From the NCBI GenBank assembly GCA_965613025.1, contig CBFDUE010000001.1:80591-144590 (forward strand): a DNA stretch of 64,000 bases, given 5' to 3'. Source of the stretch: an uncultured bacterium. Its GTDB lineage: Bacteria > Desulfobacterota > DSM-4660 > Desulfatiglandales > JALVMZ01. The notes beneath the pieces were generated by a model, which worked only from the letters and a program-made list of their open reading frames with translations, was not told the DNA's origin and searched no databases. The position numbers and the translations under genes were made by a program. Positions 22,071 through 63,153 of this stretch are shown piece after piece; within the stretch, counting starts at the first letter, position 1; the number at the start of each line of letters is the position of its first letter.

Positions 22071-23717
22071 CTATTTAATAGGTTTTTCTTCCAGCTGTTT
22101 TTTAAGGACCTTTTTGTCAATCTTACCAGAGTCACCCACAGTGGGAAGCTGATCCACCACTTCCAATCTCTCTGGAAGCTTATACATGGCAAGCTTTTTA
22201 GACTTTAAAAAATCTACCATCTCATCAAAGGTGAAAGTCTCACCAGGTTTTGGAACCACAAAGGCACACGCTCTCTCTCCCATCTCTTTATCGGGATACC
22301 CCACGATGGCCACACTTGCCACTTTGGGATGTTCATTTAAAAGACCTTCAATTTCTGCAGGATAGATATTCTGCCCTCCCCTTATTATCATATCCTTGGC
22401 TCTTCCCATAATCAGAAGGCATCCCTGCTCCCATCTGACGATATCCCCAGTGGTTGCCCATCCCTCTGGATCAAAGACCGTGCTGGTTAGCTCCTCATCT
22501 CTGTAATATCCGGCAGGACTATGAGGTCCTCTAAACCAAAGTTGACCTGGTTCCCCCTCTGGAACCTCCTTTCCGTCTTCATCTAAAAGTCTGACTCTGT
22601 TACCTGGAAGCGGCCTTCCTACAGTTCTTCTTCTAAGCTCTGGAGGATCTTCCACCCTGCAACCTGATATGGATCCCACATCCTGGGTTCCAAGGTCACT
22701 GGTAATCACAGCACCAAATGCGGCTTCTGCCTCCTGTGCCAATTGGGGAGATAGATATCCACCCGCAGATCTAATAAATCTAAGTGAACTCATATCATAT
22801 TTATCAACCCCTGCATCCAGCATTCTTACAAGATGAGTTGGCACTACTCCGATTGCAGTGGCCTTTTCCTTTTCAATAAGCTCCAATGCCCCTTCAGGAC
22901 TGAACTCTTCGAGCATCACTGTCTTTGCTCCTACCACAGGAGCTGCAAAATAGGTAAGGGTTCCCGCTGCCCCTCCTGCATGGGGTGCGATGGCCATGGT
23001 GATATCATCCTTGGTTAGGCTCCATATATCCACCCTTGCCTTTGAGGTGCAGAGCCTGGGGGCTATAGGCCATTCCACCAGCTTTGGTAGTCCCGTGGTC
23101 CCTGTGGTAGTGGTGAGGATTGCCACATTCCAAAGGGGGTCCAGCCTTCTTTTTTGTAATTCTTCAAGATCTATGTCCTTTTCTGCCCTTTCCTTTGCCA
23201 TGGTGGTAAGGGAATAGGTATCAGATGGGGCACCTTCTGGAACTGTATCATCAAACAGGAATATGTATTTCAAAGACTTAAATCTCTCTTTTAGCCCCCT
23301 ATACATCTCAAGATAGTTGAATTTTCTGTATATACTTGGAATTACAACAGCAGTTGCCTCTGTTCTTTCGACCATATATTCCAGTTCTCTTTCCCTTAGA
23401 TATGGATATACCGTAAGGGAGATGAGGCCTGCTCTTTCTGCTGCTATTCTGGATAAAAACCCATAAACGCTATTAGGAGATTGGATTATTATTCTTGAAA
23501 ATTTAGGTATTCCCATCTCAACCCAGAGCATAGCGATTGCATCTGCAAGCCTCTTCGCCTCGGCCCAGGTGACCCTGTATCGGGAGTCCACCAGCGCCTC
23601 TCTATCTCCCAGCTCTTTTGCATTTCTTTCATAGAAATCAAAAAAGGTCTCCTGGGTCCAATATCCATCCTTTAAAAATTCATTTACCATCTTCTCTGTA
23701 TATCTTATGGGCTTCAT
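22071..23717 (-). CDS. AMP-forming aryl/alicyclic-acid CoA ligase (EntE/AliA-like adenylating enzyme)
   Basis: 548 aa. The N-terminus (EFLKDGYWTQETFFDFYERNA...) is like EntE and cyclohexanecarboxylate-CoA ligase. AMP-binding motif TTTTGTTGLPKLV, plus GWATTGD and a C-terminal lysine region. Confidence 0.8.
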   Translation of the reverse strand: MKPIRYTEKMVNEFLKDGYWTQETFFDFYERNAKELGDREALVDSRYRVTWAEAKRLADAIAMLWVEMGIPKFSRIIIQSPNSVYGFLSRIAAERAGLISLTVYPYLRERELEYMVERTEATAVVIPSIYRKFNYLEMYRGLKERFKSLKYIFLFDDTVPEGAPSDTYSLTTMAKERAEKDIDLEELQKRRLDPLWNVAILTTTTGTTGLPKLVEWPIAPRLCTSKARVDIWSLTKDDITMAIAPHAGGAAGTLTYFAAPVVGAKTVMLEEFSPEGALELIEKEKATAIGVVPTHLVRMLDAGVDKYDMSSLRFIRSAGGYLSPQLAQEAEAAFGAVITSDLGTQDVGSISGCRVEDPPELRRRTVGRPLPGNRVRLLDEDGKEVPEGEPGQLWFRGPHSPAGYYRDEELTSTVFDPEGWATTGDIVRWEQGCLLIMGRAKDMIIRGGQNIYPAEIEGLLNEHPKVASVAIVGYPDKEMGERACAFVVPKPGETFTFDEMVDFLKSKKLAMYKLPERLEVVDQLPTVGDSGKIDKKVLKKQLEEKPIK

Positions 23718-23744: not shown

Positions 23745-25148
23745 TTAATCAAGGCCAAGCTCCTTCCACCTGCCCTCGATCCTCTTTACAATTTCAGGGT
23801 CAAGTTCTATAGGAATTGGTTTCTCCTTCCATTCATAGGGGATAGTTGCATCAATAAGGAGTCTTCCAGTGATTTCCCTTGCCTCAATGGGTAGAGATGG
23901 GTCAAGGGGGGTAGATCTTCCTCTTCTAATGATCTCACATCTATTAGGTTGAGCCCTGAATGCCAAAGCATATAGGACCCTTGGAATATCCCAAGGATCA
24001 ATATCATCATCAACCACAATTACTGTCTTAAGTCCATAAGCGCCCATCTCTGTGGATATGGCAGCGGTGAGCACCTGATTAGCATGTCCAGGATACATGG
24101 TTTTAACAGATATGATGGCAATAAATCTACCGGCTCCTTCAGGAGGGCAATATACGGCCTTAATCCCTGGAATCTTCATGGCAGTTAGCTGCTGCCAAAG
24201 GGTTGCGCCATAGGTAAGTGCCATGGTCATGTGGGTGTCAGTTACGGCCCTTCCCACGGTTGTTGCCTGAAATATGGGATTATTTCTGAAAGTAACACAC
24301 TTTACCTCAATATAGTTTCGTGGGGTGGTGCCAATTCCTGAATAATAGCCTGTATATTCACCAAAAGGGCCTTCTGGCATCGTCTTTTCAGGATCCACTA
24401 TTCCTTCAACCACAATCTCAGCCGTGGCAGGGACAGGTAGATCACAAGTTTCACATTTTACTACCTCAATGGGCTTCCCCCTTATGGAGCCAGCAAGATC
24501 ATACTCACATTCAAAGGCAGATACTCTGGCCGCGCCCATCAAAAAGAGCAGAGGATCCCCACCAATTACTACTGCCACAGGCATGGGTTTTCCCAATGCC
24601 TGATATTTCTTAAGCATGATATCTGCATGTTTTCCTTTAATAAATTGAGTTCCAAGTGTATTTTTATTTAGCAACTGCAATCTATATGTCCCTAAGTTGA
24701 CCCAATCGCTATCAGGATCTTTTGTCACCACAAAATGGGCAGTTCCAAAATATCTTCCCCCGTCTTTGGGATAGAATTTAGGGACAGGGAACTTGAACAG
24801 ATCCACTTCATCCCCTTCCATCTTGTTCTCCTTACATGGCCCATTATCTACCCAAGCAGGCGGGATCTTCTGCTCATTCTTTTCCACCCACAGTCTCATA
24901 AGATCCACAAGGTTAGAGTCCAATGGAATTCCCATAATAAAAGAGAGTCGCTCAGTGGTAGTATAGACACTAGTTAAAACCGGAGAATTATAGCCCTTAA
25001 CATTCTCAAACAGCAGTGCTGGCCCACCTCTCTCTTCATTGAGTTTGGCAATATGGGAGAGCTCCAGATCCCAGTCTACTTCTGCCTTAATCCTTTTAAG
25101 AAGCCCCCTGCTTTCTGCCTGCTCTATAAACTCCCTCAGGTCCTTCAT
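23745..25148 (-). CDS. UbiD-family (prFMN-dependent) (de)carboxylase
   Basis: 467 aa. MKDLREFIEQAESRGLLKRIKAEVDWDLELSHIAKL...GGPALLFENVKGY is a typical UbiD N-terminus. It lies 27 nt upstream of the ligase gene. Confidence 0.85.
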   Translation of the reverse strand: MKDLREFIEQAESRGLLKRIKAEVDWDLELSHIAKLNEERGGPALLFENVKGYNSPVLTSVYTTTERLSFIMGIPLDSNLVDLMRLWVEKNEQKIPPAWVDNGPCKENKMEGDEVDLFKFPVPKFYPKDGGRYFGTAHFVVTKDPDSDWVNLGTYRLQLLNKNTLGTQFIKGKHADIMLKKYQALGKPMPVAVVIGGDPLLFLMGAARVSAFECEYDLAGSIRGKPIEVVKCETCDLPVPATAEIVVEGIVDPEKTMPEGPFGEYTGYYSGIGTTPRNYIEVKCVTFRNNPIFQATTVGRAVTDTHMTMALTYGATLWQQLTAMKIPGIKAVYCPPEGAGRFIAIISVKTMYPGHANQVLTAAISTEMGAYGLKTVIVVDDDIDPWDIPRVLYALAFRAQPNRCEIIRRGRSTPLDPSLPIEAREITGRLLIDATIPYEWKEKPIPIELDPEIVKRIEGRWKELGLD

Positions 25149-25260: not shown

Positions 25261-26190
25261 ATGATTCTTAATATGAATCAATTAAGGGCATTTTATCTTG
25301 CGGCAAAGCTAAGAAGTATTGCAAAGGCAGCGCAGGAGCTTATGGTAACACCTCCGGCGGTAAGCAAACAGATCAGACAGCTTGAAGAATCCTTGGGGCT
25401 TAAATTACTTTACAGAGATGGGAATTCCATAAAGCTAACGGAGATAGGGAATTCCATATTTAAGAGGAGCAAAGATATATTTGGAAAGATAGAGGAGATG
25501 GAAAGCTACTTTGAGGACCTAACCACTGCAAAGACAGGAGAGCTTAGGATAGGTTGCACACAGACACCTGCAAAGTATATAATGCCAGCGCTGATAGCCA
25601 GATTTAAGGATAACTATCCAGGGATTAAGATAGTGCTGGATCAGGGGACCAGCTCAGAGATGATCCATAATATCTTAAATAATATCAATGAGCTCGCGCT
25701 TATGCGTTATAGGCCCAATGAAAAGAGGCTAAAGGTAAAGGTGATAAGGGAGGAGGAATTGATTCTGATTGCTGCAAGACACAGCAGGCACATAAATACA
25801 AAAGAGATATCCATATCAGAGCTTTCCTACATACCCCTTATTGTCCCCAAGGAAGGTTCAGGGATCAGGGATGCTATCTTTGAATATCTTTCAAAGTTCA
25901 AGATAAGACCCAATGTGGGTATGGAATCAGGAAGTGTGGATCTGATAAAGGAGATGGTTCGTCAGGATAAGGGGGTGAGTTTCCTGGAAAGATATGTGGT
26001 GGAAGAAGAGCTTAAAAGAGGATTTCTTAAGGCAGTGGGGATACTCGAAGGTTCTCCTAAGATTGAACTTGGAGTCGGATACCTTCAAAGGAGACACCTC
26101 TCTCCGCCTGCATGGGCCTTTTTAAGGATGCTTGAAAACCTTAAAAATTCCATCTCCTTAAATTTAGATGAAAAACAGAGGAAGGGATAA
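25261..26190 (+). CDS. LysR-family transcriptional regulator (paralog 1)
   Basis: 309 aa. wHTH N-terminus MNQLRAFYLAAKLRSIAKAAQELMVTPPAVSKQIRQLE. Divergent from the UbiD-ligase operon. Confidence 0.9.
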   Translation: MILNMNQLRAFYLAAKLRSIAKAAQELMVTPPAVSKQIRQLEESLGLKLLYRDGNSIKLTEIGNSIFKRSKDIFGKIEEMESYFEDLTTAKTGELRIGCTQTPAKYIMPALIARFKDNYPGIKIVLDQGTSSEMIHNILNNINELALMRYRPNEKRLKVKVIREEELILIAARHSRHINTKEISISELSYIPLIVPKEGSGIRDAIFEYLSKFKIRPNVGMESGSVDLIKEMVRQDKGVSFLERYVVEEELKRGFLKAVGILEGSPKIELGVGYLQRRHLSPPAWAFLRMLENLKNSISLNLDEKQRKG

Positions 26191-26193
26191 TTT

Positions 26194-27396
26194 ATGAAGA
26201 ATTCAGATAGATTTATAGTGATAATAGGAACATTTGATAGCAAAGGCAGAGAACACCAATTTTTAAAAGAGGCCGTGGAAAAGAGAGGATTTAAAACCTA
26301 CAGCATAAATGTGGGAACAGGTGCACCTTCTACCTTTCCATGTGATAGGGATCTATTTGAAGAACTGTTTAGGAAAAGACCACAAGATCGGGATCTTGCA
26401 ATAAAAAAGAGTATGGAGAAGGCCATAGAGATCCTAAAAGACCTCCAAAAAGAGCAGAGAATTGCCGGGATTATATCCGCTGGAGGAGGAACTGGAACCC
26501 ATATTTCCACAACCATTATGAGTTCCTTACCTGTAGGAGTTCCCAAAGTTATGGTATCCACAGTGGCATCTAAAAATATGAAAGAGATAGTGGGCACAAA
26601 GGACATAACCATGATACACAGTGTGACTGACATACTGGGTATAAACAGTATTCTGGGAAGGATCTTGGATATGGCAGCAGGCGCAGTCTGTGGAATGGCT
26701 GAGCCCAAATGGAATCCCAGATCAGATAAAAAAAGGATTGCGCTTACCATGTTTGGATTTATAGATAGTGGTGCTCATAAGATAAAGGATTGTCTGGAAG
26801 ATATGGAATATGAGGTGGTGGCGTTTCATGCAAATGGAACAGGTGGAATGGCCATGGAAGCACTAGCAAGGGATGGGTTTTTTGATGCCATCTTAGATCT
26901 TGCTACCCATGAGCTTGCTGATGAGCTATTGAAAGGTTATTGTAGTGGCATAGGGCCAGAGAGATTAGATCCTCCCTCAGAAAATCCTATACCAAGGCTT
27001 GTGGTTCCAGGGGGGTTAGATTGTGCTGTGCTTGAATTTACAAGGAAAAATATCCCTTCCATATACAGAGATAGAAAGATATTTTTCTATGATTTTAGAT
27101 CTGGAATCAGATTAAATGAAGATGAGACAAGGGCTGTGGCACAATGGCTTTCAGAAAAATTGAACAAGGCTCCCAATCACACTAAGATTCTTATTCCATT
27201 AAAAGGATGGTCAGAGGCGGATCGTGAAGGAGGCCCATTATATGATCCCAAGATGAGGGATATATTCATCAGCACGCTTAAAGAGAGGCTAAATCCAGTA
27301 ATTGAGATAATTGAGGTTGAATTTCATATAAATGATGATGGATTTGCTCGCCTTGCATCTGATATTATGATCCATATGATGGAAGGGAAGAGATGA
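26194..27396 (+). CDS. UPF0261 family protein (Tm-1-like ATP-binding domain), copy 1
   Basis: 400 aa. FIVIIGTFDSKGREHQFLKEAVEKRG..., GIISAGGGTGTHIST and PKVMVSTVAS fit my memory of UPF0261/PF06792. It starts 3 nt after LysR-1 and overlaps LysR-2 by ATGA. Confidence 0.7.
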   Translation: MKNSDRFIVIIGTFDSKGREHQFLKEAVEKRGFKTYSINVGTGAPSTFPCDRDLFEELFRKRPQDRDLAIKKSMEKAIEILKDLQKEQRIAGIISAGGGTGTHISTTIMSSLPVGVPKVMVSTVASKNMKEIVGTKDITMIHSVTDILGINSILGRILDMAAGAVCGMAEPKWNPRSDKKRIALTMFGFIDSGAHKIKDCLEDMEYEVVAFHANGTGGMAMEALARDGFFDAILDLATHELADELLKGYCSGIGPERLDPPSENPIPRLVVPGGLDCAVLEFTRKNIPSIYRDRKIFFYDFRSGIRLNEDETRAVAQWLSEKLNKAPNHTKILIPLKGWSEADREGGPLYDPKMRDIFISTLKERLNPVIEIIEVEFHINDDGFARLASDIMIHMMEGKR

Positions 27397-28298
27397 TAAA
27401 TCTGAATCAGCTTAGAGCATTTTATTGGAGCGCAAGGCATCTAAGCTTTACTAAGGCTGCAAAAGAACTATATGTATCTCAGCCTGCCATTACCACACAG
27501 ATCAGGCTCTTTGAGAAAGATCTGCAACTACAGCTTTTTAGAAGAAAGAGAGGAGGGAAGCTAATTCTTACAAGGGAAGGTGCGAGGCTATTTGAGTATG
27601 CGAAAAAGATATTTGAATATGAAGAGAGGCTGGAAGAGGTGATTGAAGATATAAGAAAATTAAAAGATAGAATTCTTCATATTGGAAGCGGAAGGAGCTA
27701 TGCCCATTATTTTGTTCCTTCCCTTATAGAATATTTCCATAAGGACCATCCTGAAATAAAGATAAAGGTTGAGGAAGGGAATTCACAAGATCTCATAAAT
27801 GGCCTCATTGAGATGAAAAATGAGGTGGCAATAGTATCTAAGGTGCTCGAACTTCCTGATATTAGATATGAGCTATTTAGTATGAAGGAGATCATTCCCA
27901 TTGTTCATATTTCACATCCCCTATTGAAGAAGAGATTCGTTAGCTTTCATGAGCTGGCACAAGAACCTATAATAATGAAAGAATCAGGGTCTGGGACAAG
28001 ATGGGTTGTGGAGGACCTTTTTAAGAGATATGGCTATGTGCCAAAGATAATAATGGAGGCAAGTGATGTGGAGATCATTAAGAGCATGGTGGAGCAGGGA
28101 AATGGGATTTCCTTTTTATTGTATGAGGCAGTAAAGAAAGATATCCAAAATAAGAGGATTGCAAGACTTCCCCTTAAAGGGCAAAAGATATATCTGGATA
28201 TAACCATTGCCTACCTCAAGGATCAGATTACCTTTCCTACCAAAGCGTTTCTTGACTGTATTAAAAGGATAAAAGAGGTCTCTGATTTCCATGTTTAA
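27393..28298 (+). CDS. LysR-family transcriptional regulator (paralog 2)
   Basis: 301 aa. MINLNQLRAFYWSARHLSFTKAAKELYVSQPAITTQIRLFE. Its start overlaps the UPF0261 stop (ATGA, 27393-27396). Confidence 0.9.
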   Translation: MINLNQLRAFYWSARHLSFTKAAKELYVSQPAITTQIRLFEKDLQLQLFRRKRGGKLILTREGARLFEYAKKIFEYEERLEEVIEDIRKLKDRILHIGSGRSYAHYFVPSLIEYFHKDHPEIKIKVEEGNSQDLINGLIEMKNEVAIVSKVLELPDIRYELFSMKEIIPIVHISHPLLKKRFVSFHELAQEPIIMKESGSGTRWVVEDLFKRYGYVPKIIMEASDVEIIKSMVEQGNGISFLLYEAVKKDIQNKRIARLPLKGQKIYLDITIAYLKDQITFPTKAFLDCIKRIKEVSDFHV

Positions 28299-28334
28299 TA
28301 ATAGAAGACATTACCATAAAAAGTTATAAAAAAT

Positions 28335-28349
28335 TCTTATTTCTTAAGA
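28335..28349. promoter_or_regulatory. Candidate LysR-type box TCTTA-N5-TAAGA upstream of the bis-MGD enzyme gene
   Basis: 15-nt dyad TCTTATTTCTTAAGA about 80-90 nt upstream of ATG 28428. Confidence 0.3.
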
Positions 28350-28427: not shown

Positions 28428-30647
28428 ATGGAAAGGGAATATAAAGATGCAGAGGTAAAGAGATCCATGTGTTTCTGGTGCAAGCCCAGATGTATTTTGG
28501 ATGTGTATGTTAAGGATGGAAGGCTGCTTGGTGTAAGCAAATCCCCTATAAAAGGATGTCCCAGATGGAAGATAGCAAAGGAGATATTTTATAGTCCTAC
28601 CAGAACCACCTTTCCTATGAAGAGAGTTGGAGAGAGAGGAGAAAATAGATGGAAACAGATATCCTGGGATCAGGCCTTAGATGAGATAGCGGAGAGGCTT
28701 TCATCCATAAGGGATAGATATGGTGCAGAGGCTGTGGCACATCAGCACGGAACCAGCAGATCTTATGAAGAACTCCGAACTCGCTTTTTCAACCTCTTTG
28801 GAAGTCCAAATCACTTCGGCCAGGCACACATCTGTCATGGAAATTCCGCAGTGGTGGCATGTATGGTGTTGGGATGGTGGCCATATTGGATGAATGTGGA
28901 AAAGCTGGAGAAGGCAAATTGTATCTTCTTTGTAGGTCGAAATCCTATTCCGAGTCATCAGACAATAAGGGATGGCGTAGAGCAGGCCAGGAAGAGGGGG
29001 GCGACAGTTATTGTGGCAGATCCCAGACCATCTGATATAGTGAAGCATGCAGACATCTGGTTGAGATTGAGACCAGGTACAGATGCTGCACTTCTGCTTT
29101 CAATGATGAATGTAATTGTGAACGAGGATCTTTATGATAAAGAGTTTGTAAATAATTGGACATATGGTTTTGATAAGTTAAGCGATAGGCTAAAGGAATA
29201 TCCCCCAAGTAGAGGTGCTGAGATAACTGGTTTAAAAGAAGAAGATATTATAAAGGCAGCCAGGATTTATGCAACAAAAAGACCCTCATGTATGATGGAA
29301 GGAATGGGTGTTGCACATCAGCCCAATTCTCTAAATGCGCTACTCTGTCGCTATCTTATGCCTGCTTTAGTTGGCATGATAGATGTGGAAGGGGGAGAGG
29401 AGCTAATGGGCCCAGCTCCCATAATTACAGAACATGAGATTGAGCTTCCCGATATCCTTCCTGCTGAGCAGGCACAAAAAATGATAGGAAGTCAATATAG
29501 GCTATATTCCCATGAGGGATATGAGCTGATCCAGAAAAATGTGGAAAGGGTATGGGGTAAAAGATGTGATCTTCAGGTGTATATGAGATGTGCATCTGCC
29601 CCCCTTATCTTTCATGCGATGGCATATGGGGAGCCCTACCCTATAAAGGGTCTGATATGTGTCGCATGTAATCCCATGCTTACCATGCCAAATATAAAAC
29701 TGGTATATAAGGCATTAAAAAATTTAGAGCTTTTAGTGGTAGTGGATAAGGTCTGGACTCCCACTGCTCAGCTTGCAGACTATGTGCTACCAGCAGCAGA
29801 CTGGTTAGAGAGGGATTTTATATTTAATTACCATAATACCACTCCATTGATTATTGCAGGAGAGGCGGCCCTTCCAAAGACCATCACAGGGGAGTATGAC
29901 AGAAGGGATGATTTTGACTTCTGGAGAGGATTGGGAATAAGGCTTGGACAAAAGGAATATTGGCCTTGGGAAAGTGTTCGGGAATATTATGATTATAGAC
30001 TAAGGCCCATAGGACTGAGTTTTAAAGAGCTGGTTCAAATGGGCAAGTGGTTTCCTGAAAAGAGAGAATTTAAAAAATACATAAATAAAGGTTTTGGAAC
30101 ACCTACGGGCAAGGTGGAATTCTATTCTACAATACTAGAAAAACTGGGGTATGATCCACTTCCCAAGTTTGAGGAACCACCTGAAAGTCCCATAAGCAGT
30201 CCAGAACTTGCGAAGGAATATCCTCTTATTCTTATTACAGGTGGTAGATTTTTACCCTATTTCCATTCAGAATTCAGGAATATCCAGACCTTCAGAAAGG
30301 CCTATCCCTATCCCCAGGTGGAGATACATCCTGAAACTGCTAAAAACTATGGAATAGAAGAGGGAGACTGGGTCTGGATTGAGACACCACGAGGTAGGAT
30401 AGTTCAGAGATGCAGATTGGTGGACGAGATAGACCCAAAAGTTGTCCATGCCCAGCATGGCTGGTGGTATCCTGAACTTCCTCCAGAGGAGCCTTGGCTT
30501 CATGGAGTCTGGATATCCAATGTGAATGTGCTGACTGAAAAGGATCCAGATAAGGGTATAGATAAGGCATTAGGATCTTGGCCACTCAGGACCATGCTAT
30601 GCAGGATATATAAGGCCCGGGTATCAGATATTCCATTATTTTATTAA
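28428..30647 (+). CDS. Cytoplasmic bis-MGD (Mo/W) enzyme of the acetylene-hydratase-like clade, unknown substrate
   Basis: 739 aa. N-terminal [4Fe-4S] motif C15-x2-C18-x3-C22...C44 and no twin-arginine signal. Long stretches match my recollection of Pelobacter acetylenicus acetylene hydratase (RWKQISWDQALDEIAERL; ADIWLRLRPGTDAALLLSMMNVIVNEDLYDKEFVNNW; TPTAQLADYVLPAADWLER; GKVEFYSTILEKLGYDPLP...PELAKEYPLILITG). The metal-ligand Cys (C136 in HICHGNS) is conserved, but the catalytic Asp after the second Cys is Lys19. Confidence 0.75.
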   Translation: MEREYKDAEVKRSMCFWCKPRCILDVYVKDGRLLGVSKSPIKGCPRWKIAKEIFYSPTRTTFPMKRVGERGENRWKQISWDQALDEIAERLSSIRDRYGAEAVAHQHGTSRSYEELRTRFFNLFGSPNHFGQAHICHGNSAVVACMVLGWWPYWMNVEKLEKANCIFFVGRNPIPSHQTIRDGVEQARKRGATVIVADPRPSDIVKHADIWLRLRPGTDAALLLSMMNVIVNEDLYDKEFVNNWTYGFDKLSDRLKEYPPSRGAEITGLKEEDIIKAARIYATKRPSCMMEGMGVAHQPNSLNALLCRYLMPALVGMIDVEGGEELMGPAPIITEHEIELPDILPAEQAQKMIGSQYRLYSHEGYELIQKNVERVWGKRCDLQVYMRCASAPLIFHAMAYGEPYPIKGLICVACNPMLTMPNIKLVYKALKNLELLVVVDKVWTPTAQLADYVLPAADWLERDFIFNYHNTTPLIIAGEAALPKTITGEYDRRDDFDFWRGLGIRLGQKEYWPWESVREYYDYRLRPIGLSFKELVQMGKWFPEKREFKKYINKGFGTPTGKVEFYSTILEKLGYDPLPKFEEPPESPISSPELAKEYPLILITGGRFLPYFHSEFRNIQTFRKAYPYPQVEIHPETAKNYGIEEGDWVWIETPRGRIVQRCRLVDEIDPKVVHAQHGWWYPELPPEEPWLHGVWISNVNVLTEKDPDKGIDKALGSWPLRTMLCRIYKARVSDIPLFY

Positions 30648-31606
30648 GGGATGGAAACGGCAGGGAGGTTATTATCTAAATAGGATATAAGTTCACGAAT
30701 GCCATAGCCAGGTCTGAGTCCCTGGGCCATCTGTTTTAGCATTTCTAAGAATCTGGTTGCAGCAATAGAGAGGGGTTGGGTCTTTAGATAGGCAATGGAT
30801 ATATCTAAAAACAGCCTTTTACCCTCTAGGGGTCTGCTCTTTAAGACCCCTTTTTTTAACTCCTTATAAACTGCATCTTTCACCACAAAGGATATCCCAT
30901 TTCCTTGCTTTACAAGCTGTTTTATAAACTCAGTGTTACTGGTTTCCATAAGTATATTAGGGGTTATCCCTTTTTCGCTAAAGAGCCTGTCCACAATCTT
31001 TCTGGTTCCTGAACCTTCCTCCTTCATAATCAGGGGATAATCCATAAGCTCTTCAATCGATACCTCCTTTTCCTTTGTAAGAGGATGTCCTGGAGGAAGT
31101 ATAAGGATCAACTCTTCATGGGCAAAAGGGATGACCTCGATATCAGGATAGTTTTCAACCATTGCAATTATCCCAATCTCATTTTTTAAATCAAGGAGAC
31201 TGAGAAGGATATCTTTTGAGCTTCCTTCATTTAGAAAGATCTTTATCCCTGGATATCTACATCTAAAGTTCTGAACAATGTATGGCATAAAAAACCTGGC
31301 ATATGTTTTGGTGGTTCCTATTCTTAGAAGCCCTCTTTTTAACTTTTGAAGCTCTTCAATGGTATTTTCAATCTCTCTTTCAAATTCAAATACCTTTTTT
31401 GCAAGGTCAAAGAGAACCCTTCCTTCATCAGTAAGATGAATCCTTCTGCCCCTCTTTTTAAATAGCTTAAAACCACAGAATTTTTCAAATATCTTCAATT
31501 GGGCTGTAACAGCAGGCTGGGTAATAAAGAGATTTTTAGCGGCCTTGGTGCAGCTCATATACCTTGCGGTTTCATAAAAGATCCTGAGATGATTAAAGTT
31601 GATCAT
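30644..31606 (-). CDS. LysR-family transcriptional regulator (paralog 3)
   Basis: 320 aa. MINFNHLRIFYETARYMSCTKAAKNLFITQPAVTAQLKIFE, closest to paralog 2. Its stop codon overlaps the stop of the convergent bis-MGD gene. Divergent from the Pps-like operon. Confidence 0.9.
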   Translation of the reverse strand: MINFNHLRIFYETARYMSCTKAAKNLFITQPAVTAQLKIFEKFCGFKLFKKRGRRIHLTDEGRVLFDLAKKVFEFEREIENTIEELQKLKRGLLRIGTTKTYARFFMPYIVQNFRCRYPGIKIFLNEGSSKDILLSLLDLKNEIGIIAMVENYPDIEVIPFAHEELILILPPGHPLTKEKEVSIEELMDYPLIMKEEGSGTRKIVDRLFSEKGITPNILMETSNTEFIKQLVKQGNGISFVVKDAVYKELKKGVLKSRPLEGKRLFLDISIAYLKTQPLSIAATRFLEMLKQMAQGLRPGYGIRELISYLDNNLPAVSIP

Positions 31607-31822: not shown

Positions 31823-33676
31823 ATGAAAGAAAGAGGCAAATTCCCTGACCCCCACGAATTTAAAACTCCCCCAGAGCTGGATGGATGGGAGGAGATGTAT
31901 CCTTCCCATTACCTCTTTTCAAAGGACAGGGAGGAGTGGGAAAAGAGACAATTCTGGTATCAGGATAAGATCCATGATCCTGAGCCCTTGCCTCCTTTAG
32001 ATCTCATATTTCAAGAGGCATGGCAGATATCCCTTTCTCAGTATACCACAAGGGTATTCTGTATCCCTCCGGCACAGGGAATAGCACAGCGTATGGTAGG
32101 ATGTTACATGTATATCTGTGCTATAAACCCTCCACCAGAAGAGGTAATCGGTAAAAAGGCTCAGCTATTTGAAAAGAGGGTATTTCATGTCTTTAAGAAC
32201 TATGATGAGCTGTGGGACAAGTGGTTAGAGAAGTTCAAGAAATTGGGAGAGGAGATGGACAGCCTCCCTGTTCCCAAAGAGTTGCCTGAATTTGTTCCAG
32301 AAGATCAGGTCCTTCCTGCTCCCACTGGCTGCTATGTATCCTACGACCTTATGGAGGCATTTGATAAACTGGTAAATATGATGTTTAAGGGATGGCAATA
32401 TCACTTTGAAATGCTCAATCTCTCCTATCTTGCATACCTTATGTTTGCAGATGTGGCCAGAAGGCTCTTCCCTGGAATTAGTGAAAGTGCCATAGGAAAG
32501 ATGGTGGCAGGTGCCTATGTTGCCATGTTTAAACCAGAAGAAGAGCTATGCAGGCTCTCCCGTCTTGCCACATCCCTTAAAGGTGTCGCTGATATATTGA
32601 AATCAGACATGAAAGTGGAAGAGAAGATCTCTCAGCTTCAGCAGAGTGATGATGGAAAACAGTGGCTTGAGGAATATGAAAAGGCAAAGGATCCATGGTT
32701 CTATGTTTCCAATGGAAGCGGATGGTTTCATTATGAAGGAAGCTGGATCACACATCCTGAAATCCCCTTTGGCTATATCAAGAGCTACATAGAGAGATTG
32801 GGAAAAGGTGAAAAGATAGAAAGATCACTGGAAGATATAGAAAAGGAAAGGGAAAGGGTGCTGGAGGAGTATAGAAAACTCATAAAGAATGAGGAAGATA
32901 GAAAATCTTTTGATGACTCATACAATATCATAAGGACCATATATCGATTTGCAGAGGATCATCTGTTCTGGGTTGAGCACTGGTTCCACACCATCTGGTT
33001 TAAGAAGGTCAGGGAATTTGGCCAGCTACTTGTAAAATATGACATGTTAAATGAGGTGGACGATATCTTTATGTTCAACAGGTATGAGATCCCACAGCTA
33101 CTCACTGAGCTTTCCACTGCCTGGGCACTTGGAGTGGATGTTCCTGTAAGAGCAAGCTACTATAAAGGAAAGGCGGAAAAGAGAAGGAGGATCCTGGAAG
33201 CTGCCAGGCAATGGAATCCACCGCCTGCCCTGGGTGTTCCACCTGAAGAGGTGGCAGAACCTTTCACTGTGATGCTATGGGGAATCACGACAGAGAAAGT
33301 AAAGGAATGGCTAAAAGGTGTGGAAGTTCCTGAAGGTGAAGAGGTAAGTGAACTTAAGGGATTTGCGTCCTCCTCTGGTGTTACAGAAGGAAAGGCAAGG
33401 GTGCTCAAGTCCTTAGCAGATCTGGACAAACTTCAGGCAGGAGAGATTATGGTATGTCCTACCACTAACCCATCCTGGGCACCGGTATTTACAAAGATAA
33501 AGGCAGCTGTGACAGACATAGGGGGGCTTACAAGCCATGCTGCTATTGTGTGTCGTGAATATGGGCTTCCAGCTGTTACAGGCTGTGGGATTGCCACATC
33601 TGTTATAAAGACAGGAGATATCATAAAAGTAAATGGTGATGAAGGAGTGGTAACTATTTTGAAGAGAGCCGAGTAG
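31823..33676 (+). CDS. PpsA-like subunit: PEP-utilising-enzyme swivel phospho-His domain protein (phenylphosphate-synthase alpha-like)
   Basis: 617 aa (about 70 kDa). The C-terminus GEIMVCPTTNPSWAPVFTKIKAAVTDIGGLTSHAAIVCREYGLPAV carries the catalytic His (His572, codon 33536-33538). No ATP-grasp/PPDK_N domain in this chain. Confidence 0.7.
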   Translation: MKERGKFPDPHEFKTPPELDGWEEMYPSHYLFSKDREEWEKRQFWYQDKIHDPEPLPPLDLIFQEAWQISLSQYTTRVFCIPPAQGIAQRMVGCYMYICAINPPPEEVIGKKAQLFEKRVFHVFKNYDELWDKWLEKFKKLGEEMDSLPVPKELPEFVPEDQVLPAPTGCYVSYDLMEAFDKLVNMMFKGWQYHFEMLNLSYLAYLMFADVARRLFPGISESAIGKMVAGAYVAMFKPEEELCRLSRLATSLKGVADILKSDMKVEEKISQLQQSDDGKQWLEEYEKAKDPWFYVSNGSGWFHYEGSWITHPEIPFGYIKSYIERLGKGEKIERSLEDIEKERERVLEEYRKLIKNEEDRKSFDDSYNIIRTIYRFAEDHLFWVEHWFHTIWFKKVREFGQLLVKYDMLNEVDDIFMFNRYEIPQLLTELSTAWALGVDVPVRASYYKGKAEKRRRILEAARQWNPPPALGVPPEEVAEPFTVMLWGITTEKVKEWLKGVEVPEGEEVSELKGFASSSGVTEGKARVLKSLADLDKLQAGEIMVCPTTNPSWAPVFTKIKAAVTDIGGLTSHAAIVCREYGLPAVTGCGIATSVIKTGDIIKVNGDEGVVTILKRAE

Positions 33677-33691
33677 GAGGTAAAAGGTGTA

Positions 33692-34759
33692 ATGGAATAT
33701 GTAAAGGACTTTAAGGAACTTCGCAGGGATTCAATTCTTGAAGCAGGGGGGAAAAATGCATCTCTTGGAGAGATGATAGGAGCGGGTATCAGGGTCCCCC
33801 CTGGTTTTGCTGTTACCACAAAGGCATATCTGGATTTTTTGGAGAAGGGCGGAATCAGGGATGAAATATTTTCCATATTATCACAGATTTCCCCTGAAGA
33901 TGTGGAAGATCTCAACAATAAAAGCCTGAAGATAAGGGATCATATAAGATCCATAGATATTCCACAGGAAATAAAGAGTGCTATAGAAAAAAGATATGTA
34001 GATCTCTGCGATGTATGTGGTGTGGAGGATCTTCCGGTGGCAGTGCGTTCCAGTGCCACTGCAGAGGATCTTCCCACTGCAAGCTTTGCAGGGCAGCAGG
34101 AGACATATCTCTGGATCAGGGGGGTAGAAGAGGTGGCATCTAAGGTGAGGGACTGCTGGGCCAGCCTCTTTACTCCCCGTGCTATAAGTTACAGGATAAA
34201 GAACAGGTTTTCCCATGAAAAGGTCTTAATCAGCGTGGGTGTTCAAAAGATGGTAAATTCAAGGACCGCTGGCGTAATGTTTACTCTTAACCCTATAGAT
34301 GGGGATCTATCCAAGGTGGTGATTGAAGGTAGCTGGGGATTGGGTGAAAGTGTGGTCTCTGGTTCAGTTACTCCTGATAAATTCGTGGTGGACAAGGTGG
34401 TGCTTGAGATAACAGAGAGAACCATATCCAGAAAACATATACAGTGTGTATATGATCCTTTGGAGGGAAAAGTGGTGGAGAAGGATATGGAAGAGGATAT
34501 GCAAAATATGTGCTGTCTTCAGGACGAAGAGATCAAGGAGCTGGTTAAGATGGCAAAGAGGATTGAAGATCACTATGGCACTCCCATGGACATAGAATGG
34601 GCAATAGACAATGATCTGGAATTCCCAGAGAATATCTTTATTGTCCAGGCAAGGCCGGAAACAGTGTGGAGTCAGAAGAAAAAGGGCCCCGTGATCGGTA
34701 AAAAGAGCGGATTTGAACTTCTTATGGAGCAGGCAATGAAGAGGATAAAACTGTCTTGA
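33692..34759 (+). CDS. PpsB-like subunit: PPDK_N ATP-grasp (nucleotide-binding) protein
   Basis: 355 aa (about 40 kDa). GGKNASLGEMIGAGIRVPPGFAVTT and VAVRSSATAEDLPTASFAGQQETYL are PEP synthase/PPDK N-terminal domain motifs. Confidence 0.7.
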   Translation: MEYVKDFKELRRDSILEAGGKNASLGEMIGAGIRVPPGFAVTTKAYLDFLEKGGIRDEIFSILSQISPEDVEDLNNKSLKIRDHIRSIDIPQEIKSAIEKRYVDLCDVCGVEDLPVAVRSSATAEDLPTASFAGQQETYLWIRGVEEVASKVRDCWASLFTPRAISYRIKNRFSHEKVLISVGVQKMVNSRTAGVMFTLNPIDGDLSKVVIEGSWGLGESVVSGSVTPDKFVVDKVVLEITERTISRKHIQCVYDPLEGKVVEKDMEEDMQNMCCLQDEEIKELVKMAKRIEDHYGTPMDIEWAIDNDLEFPENIFIVQARPETVWSQKKKGPVIGKKSGFELLMEQAMKRIKLS

Positions 34760-34780: not shown

Positions 34781-36010
34781 ATGCCTTCAATATTGCTTAT
34801 TTCCACTTTAAATACAAAAGGAGAGGAGACTGCATATCTAAGAGATAGATTAAAGGCCCTGGGATCTGAGATCATAACAATGGATCTATCCATGCAGGAA
34901 GGAAGCCTCTGGAAGGCAGAGATACCACCAAGGAATGTGGCAGAGGCAGGAGGAGGGAAGTGGGAGGAGATCCTCTCTTCTACTGATAGGGCAAAGAGCA
35001 CTGAGGTGATGATCAGGGGAGCAATTAAGAAGGCAAAGGAGTTATGGGAAAGGGGAGAAATCCAGGGTGTTATAGGAATCGGGGGCTCCACTGGATCATT
35101 GATGGCAACAGAGGTTATGAGGGCGCTTCCTTTTGGAGTTCCAAAATTGATGATCTCCTCCACTGCGGCTCTTCCTGGGCTTTCCACAAGATACATAGGA
35201 ACTGGCGATATAATGCTCTTTCATTCAGTTATTGAGATATCTGGTCTGAGTGATCTCTTAAAAAATGTGCTTGATCGTGCAGCCCTTTCAATGCATGAGA
35301 TGGCAAGGGGCCAGATGTCATCCATAAGAACAGATACAGATAGAAAGAGAATTGCCATGACTATGCTTGGGCCATGTGAGGGCTGTGCGCACAGGGTGAG
35401 AGAAGCACTTGAAAGAGAAGGTCTTCAGGTAATAGGATTTTCAGCGGCAGGAATTGGGGATAGGGCTATGGATGAGATGATTCTTCAGGGCCTGTTTCAT
35501 GGTGTGGTGGATCTTGCACCAGGCGGAATAGGTGAGCATATGTTTGGGGGAATGAGAGACGCAGGGCCTCAGAGGATTGAGGCTGCATGTTCAGTGGGTA
35601 TCCCTCAAGTTATTACGCTCTGCAGTGTTAATCATCTGACCATTAGAAAGAGTAAATATAAACCTTCTGATTATCAACGTCCCATGTATCATCTGGATAG
35701 ATACAGAACCTGGCTCAGGACCACAGAAGAGGAATTATACAATATTGGAAAGGAATTTGGCAAAAAACTCAATAGGGCGAAAGCAGAAGTGGTTATCCTT
35801 TTTCCCCAAAAAGGATGGTCATCTGTGGATAGACCAGGAAATCCAACCTATAATCCAGAACAGGATAGGATCTTCTTAAAAGGTCTTGAGGAAAACCTGA
35901 CAAATAATAATATTGAGATAATAGAGGTGGATGCTAATCTGGAAGATAAGGAATTTTCAGATGCGCTTATCTCAGCCGCAAAGAGACTCTTTTTAAATAG
36001 AAAGGAGTGA
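34781..36010 (+). CDS. UPF0261 family protein (Tm-1-like ATP-binding domain), copy 2
   Basis: 409 aa. Paralog of 26194-27396 (ILLISTLNTKGEETAYLRDRLKALG; GVIGIGGSTGSLMAT; PKLMISSTAA). It starts 21 nt after the PpsB-like gene. Confidence 0.7.
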   Translation: MPSILLISTLNTKGEETAYLRDRLKALGSEIITMDLSMQEGSLWKAEIPPRNVAEAGGGKWEEILSSTDRAKSTEVMIRGAIKKAKELWERGEIQGVIGIGGSTGSLMATEVMRALPFGVPKLMISSTAALPGLSTRYIGTGDIMLFHSVIEISGLSDLLKNVLDRAALSMHEMARGQMSSIRTDTDRKRIAMTMLGPCEGCAHRVREALEREGLQVIGFSAAGIGDRAMDEMILQGLFHGVVDLAPGGIGEHMFGGMRDAGPQRIEAACSVGIPQVITLCSVNHLTIRKSKYKPSDYQRPMYHLDRYRTWLRTTEEELYNIGKEFGKKLNRAKAEVVILFPQKGWSSVDRPGNPTYNPEQDRIFLKGLEENLTNNNIEIIEVDANLEDKEFSDALISAAKRLFLNRKE

Positions 36011-36017
36011 GGGATTT

Positions 36018-36518
36018 ATGGAAAAGGCTGATATCTTAAAAGGAAAAAGGGTTCTTGTTGTTGATGATGAAAAAGACGTACTTAATACTGTAAAGGATAT
36101 CCTTTACATGTGTGAACTTGACCTTGCATCAAGCTTTGAAGAGGCAAAAGAGCGGCTTGAATCAAGACACTATGATTTAGTGGTATTGGATATCATGGGG
36201 GTAGATGGATACAGACTACTTGAGATATCAAAAAGAAAGAATATTCCTGCAGCCATGTTCACTGCCCATGCATTTAGTGCGGATAACCTTAAAAGATCAA
36301 TTAATGAAGGCGCTTGTGCCTATATACCTAAGGAGGAGATGAGTTCCCTTCCAGATTTTCTATCAGATATCTTTAAGGCAATAGAGGAAAGAAAAGATCC
36401 ATGGGAATCATGGAGAGAGAGGCTTCCCTCCTCCTATTTTGAGACAAGATGGGGTGCCGCCTGGAAGGATCAGGACAGAGACTTTTGGGAGAGATTCTGG
36501 TCAAGCAGAAAGAAGTAA
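36018..36518 (+). CDS. Stand-alone response-regulator receiver domain with Trp-rich C-terminal tail
   Basis: 166 aa. Complete acceptor set D16/D17 (VVDDE), D58 (VVLDIMG), T82 (MFTAH) and K105 (YIPKE). The 45-aa tail contains six Trp. No output domain. Confidence 0.8.
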   Translation: MEKADILKGKRVLVVDDEKDVLNTVKDILYMCELDLASSFEEAKERLESRHYDLVVLDIMGVDGYRLLEISKRKNIPAAMFTAHAFSADNLKRSINEGACAYIPKEEMSSLPDFLSDIFKAIEERKDPWESWRERLPSSYFETRWGAAWKDQDRDFWERFWSSRKK

Positions 36519-36530: not shown

Positions 36531-37121
36531 ATGATGAAAAAAAGAATAGTAATTGGGATATCGGGTGCAAGTGGTGTAATTTATGGAATAAGGCTACTTG
36601 AAATTCTAAAAAAGATGGGCTCTTGGGAAACCCATCTTGTAATTACAGAGGCGGCAAAGAAAAATATAGAAATTGAAACAGATTATAGGTTAGAAGATGT
36701 GGAAGAGATGGCATCCTTTTCATACGCCCAGGATGACATGACAGCCCCCATATCCAGTGGTTCCTTTTTAACCGAAGGAATGGTGGTAATACCCTGTGCC
36801 ATAAAGAGTCTATCTGGAATCGCAAACTCCTTTAATACCAATCTGCTGGTGCGTGCAGCAGATGTGACTTTAAAAGAGAAAAGAAGACTGATTCTGGTGG
36901 TAAGAGAGACCCCTCTTCATATGGGACATTTAGAGCTTATGAAGAAGGCCGCTTTAATGGGAGCCATAATCCTGCCTCCCATTCCTTCCTTTTATCATCA
37001 ACCTAAAAGCATACAGGACATAATAGATCATATTATTGGGAAGATTTTGGATCATTTTAAAATAGAGCATCAACTCTATAAGAGATGGTCTGGTGTTAAA
37101 CAGAATAGGTTATCTTCTTAG
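36531..37121 (+). CDS. ubiX: Flavin prenyltransferase UbiX (prFMN synthase)
   Basis: 196 aa. KRIVIGISGASGVIYGIRLLEIL and VIPCAIKSLSGIANSF. Confidence 0.9.
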   Translation: MMKKRIVIGISGASGVIYGIRLLEILKKMGSWETHLVITEAAKKNIEIETDYRLEDVEEMASFSYAQDDMTAPISSGSFLTEGMVVIPCAIKSLSGIANSFNTNLLVRAADVTLKEKRRLILVVRETPLHMGHLELMKKAALMGAIILPPIPSFYHQPKSIQDIIDHIIGKILDHFKIEHQLYKRWSGVKQNRLSS

Positions 37122-37860
37122 ATATCTTATAAGAGGCCTTTTTTATCTCTCTTTTTAACAGCTCCATCTTATTATCATCAAGTGTTCTTTTAAAACCCAC
37201 AACCCATAAGGCAAAAGGAACACCTCTAATGATCTTTATAGGAGATGCCACTGCTCTAACCCCTATGAGATATTCTTCATAATCTGTGGCATAGTCCTTT
37301 TTGCGGACCTCTTTTAAGATCTGGATATAATGATCAGGATCAGTTATAGAATTGTCAGTAAATCTGGGTAGCCCCTTTCTATTAATAATATCTCTTGCTC
37401 TATTTTCATCCATCATGGAAAGGAAGACCTTCCCCACTGCGCCTGCAAATAGGGGAATACTTGTTCCTTTTGGTGAGATTATCCTTATATCCTGATCTGA
37501 CTCCACCACATCCACAATGGTGACCCTTTCCCCATTTAAGAAACCCAAAAATACCGTTTCCTGAACCTTTTCCATTAGCTCTTCCATAATGGGTCGTGCC
37601 ATATCTCTGATATCCATAAAGGCAAGGGTGGATCTGCTGAGTTCCATTAAGGCCATGCCCAGATAGAACTTCCTCTTTATGGGATCCTTATATAGAGCCC
37701 CCACTTCCTCCAAGGCATGGGTTATTCCATAAACTGTCCCCTTACTCATATTCAGTTCCCTTGCAATTTCACTTATACCTCTTCCATTCCTGCTTGTTCC
37801 AATATATCTCAATATCTCAAATGCCTTTCTTACTGAAGGGGCTCTATATCTTTTAGCCAT
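37096..37860 (-). CDS. IclR-family transcriptional regulator
   Basis: 254 aa. N-terminal wHTH (SVRKAFEILRYIGTS...GISEIARELNMSKGTVYGITHAL) and a C-terminal IclR effector domain. Its 3' end overlaps ubiX by 26 nt (convergent). Confidence 0.85.
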   Translation of the reverse strand: MAKRYRAPSVRKAFEILRYIGTSRNGRGISEIARELNMSKGTVYGITHALEEVGALYKDPIKRKFYLGMALMELSRSTLAFMDIRDMARPIMEELMEKVQETVFLGFLNGERVTIVDVVESDQDIRIISPKGTSIPLFAGAVGKVFLSMMDENRARDIINRKGLPRFTDNSITDPDHYIQILKEVRKKDYATDYEEYLIGVRAVASPIKIIRGVPFALWVVGFKRTLDDNKMELLKREIKKASYKISKKITYSV

Positions 37861-38764: not shown

Positions 38765-38790
38765 TTAGGAGGTTTAAAGGAGGAAATGCT

Positions 38791-40731: not shown

Positions 40732-40743
40732 GGAGGAAAAGAA

Positions 40744-58617: not shown

Positions 58618-58622
58618 AGCAC

Positions 58623-59108: not shown

Positions 59109-59113
59109 CCCAC

Positions 59114-59977: not shown

Positions 59978-59986
59978 GGCATTCTC

Positions 59987-61291: not shown

Positions 61292-61297
61292 AAGATC

Positions 61298-63093: not shown

Positions 63094-63153
63094 CTTATAT
63101 CTTCCTCTTTTCTCCCCAGGCCATATGGCCTGGGGAGAATCTAATTATACAGA

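Follow-up and report, generated by a model that had tools for sequence, protein, structure and literature searches.

An acetylene-hydratase-like molybdenum or tungsten enzyme of a subfamily linked to aryl kinases: a candidate reductive dehydroxylase from an uncultured desulfobacterotal bacterium

The enzyme gene and the predicted active site of its product

The DNA analysed here (the window) comprises 64,000 nucleotides of contig CBFDUE010000001.1 (positions 80,591 to 144,590 of the forward strand, assembly GCA_965613025.1) from an uncultured bacterium of the Desulfatiglandales lineage JALVMZ01. The subject of this report is a gene of the window encoding a bis-MGD enzyme (MGD, molybdopterin guanine dinucleotide) that resembles the acetylene hydratase (AH) of Pelobacter (Syntrophotalea) acetylenicus. 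An earlier note, made from the sequence alone, had described the protein as AH-like with an altered pocket, in keeping with a non-redox role. The gene and its two principal motifs are as follows:

28428-30647, plus strand: AH-like bis-MGD (Mo or W) enzyme, 739 amino acids, ATG start; member of the C-K-P-x-C / I-C-H-G-N-S subfamily of the AH / catechol dehydroxylase radiation
28470-28493, plus strand: [4Fe-4S] motif Cys15-x2-Cys18-Lys19-Pro20-Arg21-Cys22, placed by ungapped alignment to AH; fourth ligand Cys44 at 28557-28559
28830-28847, plus strand: Ile135-Cys136-His137-Gly138-Asn139-Ser140, with Cys136 as predicted metal ligand (AH Cys141) and His137 in place of AH Ile142

An AAGGAGG ribosome-binding site lies 7 nt 5' of the start codon, and a scan for promoters and terminators around the gene returned sites no more frequently than in shuffled sequence. 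The protein matched the Pfam domains Molybdopterin (PF00384, 5.8e-38) and Molydop_binding (PF01568, 9.1e-22), both above the gathering score, and with these two domains, a Cys4 site and a cysteine metal ligand it falls within the dimethyl sulfoxide reductase (MopB, bis-MGD) superfamily. In an NCBIfam scan every match was far under its cut-off, with weak likeness to PhsA and formate dehydrogenase. A sequence search of the PDB placed AH (2e7z) at the top (E 8.2e-136), followed by PsrA (2vpw, 2.6e-69) and then by formate dehydrogenases, and phmmer scores against the solved families were 457 bits for AH and 237 bits for the next family. An AlphaFold2 model built from 24 orthologues (pLDDT 84, pTM 0.87, with low-confidence stretches at residues 606-611 and 681-691) likewise retrieved 2e7z as its best match in a fold search (TM 0.89-0.90, root-mean-square deviation 3.1 A), with PsrA second (TM 0.78) among many matching bis-MGD structures and pyrogallol transhydroxylase at rank 38 (TM 0.69). 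The AH-like character asserted in the earlier note is thus borne out by both sequence and fold. As just 14 residues precede the first cluster cysteine there is no room for a twin-arginine (Tat) or Sec signal, in line with the cytoplasmic location given before, and no Fe-S, membrane-anchor or chaperone gene adjoins the enzyme gene in the window, again as had been described. The enzyme is predicted to be a soluble, cytoplasmic, single-subunit Mo- or W-bis-MGD protein with one [4Fe-4S] cluster.

Identity between the enzyme and AH amounts to 36% (BLASTP, 431 bits) to 38.6% (global alignment) with highly similar blocks that are short only, and the 'long near-identical stretches' claimed earlier overrate the likeness. 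The N-terminal alignment is ungapped, C15, C18, C22 and C44 corresponding to AH C9, C12, C16 and C46, so that the positional equivalence of AH Asp13 with Lys19 (codon 28482-28484) holds; retention of the [4Fe-4S] motif and of the metal-ligand Cys136, and the exchange of AH Ile142 for His137, were likewise confirmed. In the same alignment AH Ile14 corresponds to Pro20 and AH K48 to R46. The hydrophobic substrate ring of AH, which we take to be formed by Ile14, Ile113, Ile142, Trp179, Trp293 and Trp472 (2e7z), is kept at none of its six positions, these being occupied in the enzyme by P20, S110, H137, T179 (with H177 nearby), E291 and a gap, where the alignment may be off by 1-2 residues at the sites of AH W179 and I113. 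The predicted pocket is polar and basic, presenting Lys19, His137, Ser110/Arg111, His177/Gln178 and Glu291 where AH has Asp13 and the hydrophobic ring. In AH itself, an Asp-to-Ala exchange almost abolishes activity and a pocket Ile-to-Ala exchange lowers it (review, PMC6013536). Because Asp13 is replaced by Lys19 and the whole hydrophobic ring is changed, acetylene hydration by the enzyme would be very unlikely, and we do not regard it as an acetylene hydratase. An acetylene pocket is implausible with all six ring positions changed, and the anionic or phenolic substrate proposed earlier fits the adjacent aryl kinases described below.

Three further motifs distinguish the enzyme from AH. Residues 108-111 read G-T-x-R in the query and in the dehydroxylases and T-E-I-N in AH, residues 612-617 read F-H-S-E-x-R in the former and F-Q-S-C-Y-H in AH, and residues 677-683 read H-G-W-W-[Y/F]-P-E in the former and H-G-R-W-C-P-E in AH; at all three sites the version carried by the query is that of most of the radiation.

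A conserved subfamily within a large radiation

Out of 5.8 billion proteins, a word-indexed search retrieved 3,803 relatives, and the 120 best of them shared 49-100% identity with the query. About 50 of these best 120 clusters (at least 57% identity) carry C-K-P-[R/K/H]-C, almost always together with I-C-H-G-N-S and with Glu at the W293 position. The residue following the second cluster cysteine in the best 120 relatives was Lys in 53, His in 46, Asn in 5 and Asp in none; His is the commonest residue at this site across the radiation, and Asp, apart from a few scattered sequences, is essentially confined to the small AH clade. Among 24 full-length orthologues (57-83% identity) K19, P20, C136, H137, G138, N139, S140, R111, E291, H613, S614 and E615 are invariant, as are the cluster cysteines, whereas Ile135 is usual but not invariant, and the Lys19 and His137 substitutions are therefore not noise. 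The survey of the Lys/His variant that had been suggested thus uncovered a conserved subfamily, with aryl kinases, LysR regulators, DUF89 proteins and UbiD carboxylases among its neighbours. In a HMMER search of 1.84 billion cluster representatives (50% identity clusters), 1,946 clusters were found at E < 1e-30, a count that will also take in other bis-MGD families, and more than 40 representatives outscored AH.

In a neighbour-joining tree of 164 sequences the query subfamily, the AH clade and the clade of the catechol dehydroxylases Cldh and Dodh were each recovered in 40/40 bootstrap replicates; the trees are neighbour-joining only and leave out the Eggerthella-type dehydroxylases, and the order among the three groups is not fixed by them. 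The AH clade comprised three members (AH, P0137 and P0130), all with C-D-I and with tryptophans at positions 179 and 293. Members of the query subfamily derive from metagenome-assembled genomes (MAGs) of Desulfobacterota, Chloroflexota and Thermoproteota. Judged from these comparisons, AH is best regarded as a small derived twig of a very large radiation of which the query represents another well-conserved twig. The enzyme is not a rare AH variant, since His or Lys is normal at the AH Asp13 position across the radiation. The check by alignment and tree that the earlier note had called for consequently gave a divided answer, AH being indeed the nearest solved relative while the enzyme groups in a separate 40/40 clade, and the catechol dehydroxylases having been overlooked.

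Among characterised enzymes AH is the nearest to the catechol dehydroxylases of gut bacteria, which are bis-MGD enzymes with homologues in anaerobic aromatic degraders; those of the Gordonibacter type are soluble and devoid of a Tat signal, and the identity between Cldh and AH is only 26% (Maini Rekdal et al., eLife 2020, PMC7028382). With Cldh and Dodh sequences taken from the alignment file of that study, BLASTP of the query gave 32% identity and 337 bits for Cldh, 31% and 317 bits for Dodh, and 34% and 384 bits for an unnamed sequence of the same alignment which clusters with Cldh/Dodh. As the query is nearer to AH and to Cldh than these are to each other, it bridges the two. The authors of PMC7028382 defined homologues as proteins closer to AH and the dehydroxylases than to other characterised bis-MGD families, and the enzyme was indeed found to be nearer to AH and the Eggerthella/Gordonibacter dehydroxylases than to any of those families.

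Several relatives carry additional redox domains. P0044, a subfamily member (58% identity, CKPRC, ICHGNS), possesses N-terminal Fer4_20 and Pyr_redox_2 domains forming a GltD-like NAD(P)H:ferredoxin-type unit, and the same fusion occurs in P0122 (50% identity) and P0248; P0196 bears a Fer4_11 domain at the N terminus of the AH-like enzyme. In P0187 (1158 aa) the AH-like catalytic domain is followed by two ferredoxin-type domains and a C-terminal [FeFe]-hydrogenase large-subunit domain, which suggests a hydrogen-linked reductase. These fusions argue that the radiation, including the query subfamily, is wired for electron transfer.

Two side observations concern the breadth of the family. The Dehalococcoidia MAG W31_65 (DAOULY01) encodes at least 10 AH-like paralogues (L026, L034, L036, L038, L041, L047, L055, L058, L059 and L003) which differ in the residues after the second cluster cysteine and beside the ligand cysteine, several of them adjoining PpsA-like genes; by analogy, the pattern resembles the substrate-range expansion of reductive dehalogenases or gut dehydroxylases. 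In a Syntrophaceae MAG (L005, 6736-12241) two tandem C-K-P-R-C subfamily genes, whose products are 70-71% identical to the window protein, are followed on one strand by an AOR-family gene.

Gene neighbourhoods in the window and across genomes

The enzyme gene is situated between two LysR-type regulator genes, as had been noted, and is surrounded by genes of anaerobic aromatic metabolism. The features of the window are:

22071-23717, minus strand: AMP-forming aryl/acyl-CoA ligase (Pfam AMP-binding; NCBIfam matches all under cut-offs)
23745-25148, minus strand: UbiD-family carboxylase, phenylphosphate carboxylase beta-type (Pfam UbiD; equivalog TIGR02724, 489.5 bits against a cut-off of 468.95)
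25261-26190, plus strand: LysR-type regulator (Pfam), divergent from the UbiD / CoA-ligase pair
26194-27396, plus strand: UPF0261 protein of the MarK / Tm-1 family (Pfam UPF0261 and UPF0261_C; PDB matches Tm-1 2e-50 and MarK 9MPY 2e-41)
27393-28298, plus strand: LysR-type regulator (Pfam HTH_1 and LysR_substrate), directly 5' of the enzyme gene with a 129-bp AT-rich spacer
30644-31606, minus strand: LysR-type regulator (Pfam), convergent with the enzyme gene, which it overlaps by 4 nt at the stop codon, and divergent from the ppsA-like gene
31823-33676, plus strand: PpsA-like protein, 617 aa, with the His-carrying mobile domain; part of a phenylphosphate-synthase-like dikinase
33692-34759, plus strand: PpsB-like protein, 355 aa, with the ATP-grasp domain; part of a phenylphosphate-synthase-like dikinase
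34781-36010, plus strand: second UPF0261 (MarK-like) protein (Pfam; full-length match to MarK 9MPY, E 7.6e-58)
36018-36518, plus strand: response regulator, assigned from sequence, no domain scan
36531-37121, plus strand: UbiX flavin prenyltransferase (NF004685, 265.5 bits against a cut-off of 188)
37096-37860, minus strand: IclR-like regulator, assigned from sequence, no domain scan
38791-40731, plus strand: AOR-family (tungsten) enzyme, 646 aa
40744-41247, plus strand: 4Fe-4S protein
56218-59977, minus strand: xanthine-dehydrogenase-family Mo enzyme of three subunits (alpha 799 aa, [2Fe-2S] 172 aa, FAD 287 aa)
within 56218-61291, minus strand: PaaK-like CoA ligase, after the three-subunit Mo enzyme

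The PpsA/PpsB-like pair (31823-34759) matched Pfam PEP-utilizers and PPDK_N as well as NF006153 (886.7 bits against a cut-off of 578). Phosphorylation of phenols is likewise a reaction of PpsAB-type dikinases, and UbiX makes the prenylated flavin mononucleotide cofactor of UbiD. A function within the UPF0261 family was shown in 2025, when MarK was established as an ATP-dependent kinase of phenolic hydroxyls on several aromatic monomers, and it is the only characterised catalytic member of the family (PMC12624787). At the site of the substrate-binding residue His219 of MarK the 34781-36010 copy has Ser and the 26194-27396 copy His, while the ATP-site lysine of MarK (Lys16) is apparently conserved in both, and the two copies may differ in substrate. 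Three paralogous LysR genes lie within 6.4 kb (25261-26190, 27393-28298 and 30644-31606), each positioned to control its own unit, namely the UbiD/ligase pair, the AH-like gene and ppsAB-UPF0261-ubiX. An ATA-N9-TAT element (about 28326-28340) is present in the 129-bp spacer, in AT-rich DNA where it may be due to chance.

Further from the enzyme gene, the alpha subunit of the xanthine-dehydrogenase-family enzyme scored 544 bits with the XdhA model and 540 bits with the 4-hydroxybenzoyl-CoA reductase (HCR) alpha model, both below cut-off, and the open reading frames (ORFs) beyond the PaaK-like ligase (to 63999, minus strand) resemble a TRAP transporter by size and sequence, no scan having been applied. 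The 56218-63999 stretch probably encodes an HCR-type dehydroxylase module, and it is similar to the phenol and aniline clusters of Desulfatiglans anilini. The AOR-family gene and the 4Fe-4S gene are preceded by an HdrC-like Fe-S protein gene and a small ORF (37981-41247, plus strand), and AOR-family genes also occur near AH-like genes at L005, L016, L038, L045 and L083. At 49968-51647 (plus strand) a B12-binding radical-SAM protein of 559 aa, BchE / methyltransferase-like, is encoded between a CoA-transferase gene (48801-49952) and an aconitase-family hydratase gene (51654-53588).

A scan of the GTDB species genomes yielded 80 loci, all in MAGs (Desulfobacterales, Syntrophaceae, Chloroflexota classes, Bathyarchaeia and Thermoproteota), in all of which ORFs were called and clustered and genes within 8 kb counted for 33 subfamily genes, the window's included, and for 70 other family members. 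PpsA, PpsB or UPF0261 genes were encountered near 17 of the 33 subfamily genes as compared to 7 of the 70 others (Fisher p 9e-6, the loci not being phylogenetically independent), with UPF0261 present at 10 of the 33. LysR genes (12/33 against 2/70) and genes for a DUF89 / ARMT1-like phosphatase (8/33 against 2/70) followed the same pattern, and UbiD carboxylase genes recur near subfamily members. A 4Fe-4S gene was adjacent to none of the 33 subfamily genes and to 12 of the 70 others, which extends the earlier statement on missing partner genes from the window to the subfamily. Representative arrangements, in gene order, are:

L009 (Chloroflexota): PpsA, PpsB, UbiD, UPF0261, enzyme, CoA-transferase, UPF0261, UPF0261, with the run from PpsA to the enzyme on one strand
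L012, L021 and L022 (Desulfobacterales): UPF0261, DUF89, enzyme
L016: AOR, PpsA, PpsB, an unassigned gene (x), DUF89, enzyme
L088: PaaK-like, carboxyltransferase, UPF0261, enzyme (13-nt gap), short-chain dehydrogenase/reductase, PpsB-like
L086 and L087: HcrBCA-like, UPF0261, enzyme
L026 (Dehalococcoidia): hydantoinase A/B, enzyme, PpsA-like

The subfamily is specifically linked to aryl kinases, in two phyla and with different gene orders, and as the arrangements differ between lineages a simple inherited synteny is argued against. At L026 (5731-13983) hydantoinase A and B genes of the acetone / acetophenone-carboxylase type lie directly 5' of a C-K-P-H-C subfamily member and a PpsA-like gene, a context suggestive of a connection with the ATP-dependent carboxylation of aromatic ketones.

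Proposed function and comparison with known systems

The reading that we favour, with a rough probability of 45%, is that the enzyme catalyses a redox reaction of a phenolic or aryl-phosphate intermediate in anaerobic aromatic breakdown, most likely a reductive dehydroxylation. Acting on a phenolic intermediate, the enzyme would carry out a two-electron reaction at a C-O bond, probably the removal of a ring hydroxyl in the manner of the catechol dehydroxylases. The precedent of these dehydroxylases, the redox fusions, the basic and polar pocket and the link to enzymes forming and removing aryl phosphates point to such a reaction. The redox activity of the protein itself, its electron donor, an aryl phosphate as substrate and dehydroxylation as the reaction are inferred. 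Electrons would pass through the [4Fe-4S] cluster to the metal from a soluble donor such as ferredoxin, or from NAD(P)H by way of a GltD-like module such as that fused in some relatives. The UPF0261 (MarK-like) kinase may first phosphorylate the hydroxyl, in which case the phosphate would be the leaving group and would be held by the basic pocket, and the product could enter the surrounding LysR-controlled route of phenylphosphate synthase, UbiD carboxylase and CoA ligase.

A number of observations weigh against this assignment. The canonical phenol route, made up of PpsAB, a carboxylase of the UbiD type, a CoA ligase and a 4-hydroxybenzoyl-CoA reductase of the xanthine oxidase type, appears complete without the enzyme, which would not be needed there; the enzyme, its UPF0261 partner and its own LysR regulator for this reason look like an add-on module by which the phenol route is fed or complemented. 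The description of the D. anilini phenol cluster names no molybdopterin enzyme of this kind, nor do the D. anilini phenol and aniline papers mention one. We know of no precedent for the reductive cleavage of an aryl phosphate by a Mo or W enzyme. The [4Fe-4S] cluster by itself says nothing on a redox role, since AH has one and yet catalyses no net redox reaction, and the redox fusions sit in relatives and not in the window protein. Furthermore, the subfamily is without the adjacent 4Fe-4S partner of the catechol dehydroxylases, the enzyme lies outside the clade of experimentally linked dehydroxylases (Cldh/Dodh being recovered without the query subfamily), and at L001, L002 and L085 a LysR gene is directly adjacent with no aromatic genes within 10 kb. 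The enzyme was also considered as a stand-in for 4-hydroxybenzoyl-CoA reductase, a candidate role that was weakened as the window has an HCR-like candidate of its own; at L086 and L087 an HCR-type enzyme and the orthologue share an operon, which points to coexistence and not replacement.

The non-redox hydratase or hydroxyl-transfer role put forward in the earlier note, on a polar substrate other than acetylene, is compatible with AH being the nearest solved structure and with a monomeric protein having no redox partner gene in the window. We nevertheless consider it quite unlikely, as the general acid/base Asp has become Lys and the substrate ring is gone, the AH-specific motifs are missing and dehydroxylase-type motifs present, pyrogallol transhydroxylase is only a remote relative, and subfamily member P0044 is fused to an NAD(P)H/FAD module, with ferredoxin-type and hydrogenase modules in more distant relatives. 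A true acetylene hydratase using another catalytic residue would explain the top PDB match and the shared fold, and is hardly credible for a protein in which the Asp13 required in AH is Lys, the hydrophobic ring is wholly changed and placement outside the AH clade is found in 40/40 replicates.

Two alternatives retain a redox reaction. The same kinases and carboxylase adjoining the enzyme gene would equally suit an oxidative hydroxylase that places a water-derived hydroxyl onto the ring or a side chain of an aromatic compound (for example arene to phenol), after which UPF0261 or PpsAB would phosphorylate and UbiD carboxylate; the GltD-like fusion could run in either direction, and bis-MGD enzymes able to hydroxylate with water include ethylbenzene dehydrogenase and pyrogallol transhydroxylase. 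However, the nearest redox relatives that have been characterised are reductive dehydroxylases, the surroundings encode no electron-acceptor subunit and no haem or quinone-linked partner, omics studies of two anaerobic benzene degraders pointed to other gene clusters or a flavoprotein, and NAD(P)+ is by our own estimate too weak an oxidant for benzene hydroxylation, and we hold this alternative to be improbable, much as we do the hydratase. A part in anaerobic benzene activation was likewise pursued in the literature, where recent papers containing both AH and phenylphosphate name AH in their reference lists only and contain no description of the enzyme gene. Slightly less improbable, though still doubtful, is a stand-alone LysR-controlled cytoplasmic reductase of a small oxidised compound (an S- or N-oxide, an oxyanion or a sulfur compound) with aromatic neighbours by coincidence. 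The three loci combining LysR and enzyme without aromatic genes (L001, L002 and L085), the weak NCBIfam similarity to PhsA and formate dehydrogenase, and a basic pocket that would suit an anion all agree with it, but the association with aryl kinases is subfamily-specific and spans two phyla with varied gene orders, and those NCBIfam matches all lie far under their cut-offs.

A reductive dehydroxylase might also form part of a larger system. The UPF0261 kinase, the Mo/W enzyme and, at many loci, the DUF89 phosphatase could constitute a hitherto unrecognised three-part ATP-activated system for the reductive dehydroxylation of simple phenols, in which the kinase would make the phosphate ester, the Lys/His/Arg pocket would bind it and the reduced metal centre would cleave the aryl C-O bond with phosphate leaving; we regard this as a speculative and rather unlikely extension. 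To our knowledge, hydroxyl removal from non-catechol phenols in strict anaerobes is known only for the unrelated 4-hydroxybenzoyl-CoA reductase, and such a system, if real, would allow strict anaerobes to dehydroxylate these phenols.

The class of catechol dehydroxylases and AH is already known and has been described as 'widely distributed', and in a MopB phylogeny paper the 'AH' family was counted only (452 hits). In the searchable literature we found nothing specific on AH homologues lacking Asp13 or on the co-occurrence of Pps, molybdopterin enzymes and UPF0261, nor any description of the C-K-P-x-C / I-C-H-G-N-S subfamily, of its missing Fe-S partner or of its link, seen in two bacterial phyla, to UPF0261/Pps kinases, a DUF89 phosphatase and a UbiD carboxylase. 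AH has been treated as a curiosity among molybdenum and tungsten enzymes, and the present data show it to be one minor branch of a very large radiation of cytoplasmic enzymes, most of them uncharacterised. The present subfamily occurs widely in Desulfobacterota and Chloroflexota from sediments and aquifers. Should its members prove to be phenolic dehydroxylases or hydroxylases, they would close gaps in how lignin-derived and pollutant phenols (catechol, hydroquinone, hydroxybenzoates) are degraded anaerobically, tie the gut catechol dehydroxylases to environmental carbon cycling and provide a physiological partner for the UPF0261 kinases, a family for which catalysis was first reported only in 2025. 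Source annotations of the relatives include acetylene hydratase, 'thiosulfate reductase' and 'anaerobic selenocysteine-containing dehydrogenase', and caution is advised against labelling such genes in any of these ways.

Among the known systems, the 4-hydroxybenzoyl-CoA reductases HcrABC / PcmRST offer a functional analogy only, namely the reductive removal of a phenolic hydroxyl, and belong to the unrelated xanthine oxidase Mo family. Pyrogallol-phloroglucinol transhydroxylase and resorcinol hydroxylase, with which a comparison had been suggested, are remote, the match being partial (E 2.2e-7 over residues 74-258) and no beta-subunit gene being present in the window. PsrA/PhsA is the second-best solved relative and shares the Cys ligand, but the score with NF012032 was 270.5 against a cut-off of 694, and PsrA is a periplasmic, Tat-exported protein working with PsrB and PsrC, whereas the enzyme has neither signal peptide nor partner genes. 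The Eggerthella-type dehydroxylases Dadh, Cadh and Hcdh (PMC7028382) belong to the same superfamily branch, and the FHSEHRQ and WW[YF]PE segments can be read in the eLife alignment for Dadh and Cadh of E. lenta; unlike the enzyme, these dehydroxylases have a Tat signal, a far greater size (about 134 kDa predicted for Hcdh) and 4Fe-4S and membrane-anchor subunits. AH is alike in fold, in its similar size, in being a cytoplasmic single subunit and in its N-terminal Cys4 [4Fe-4S] site and Cys metal ligand, and differs by its own motifs at the GTxR, FHSExR and HGWW sites, by its separate clade and by an identity of 36-39%. Cldh and Dodh differ in having about 790-800 aa with insertions, in the loss of the first cluster cysteine, in His after the second (G-C-H-x-G-C), in their adjacent small 4Fe-4S partner, which the query subfamily does not have, and in forming a separate clade. 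They share with the enzyme the AH-related bis-MGD radiation, the absence of a Tat signal, 31-32% identity over the full length and the GTxR, FHSExR and HGWW[YF]PE motifs, and they act on phenolic hydroxyls, with members of their family being regulated by aromatic substrates (PMC7028382).

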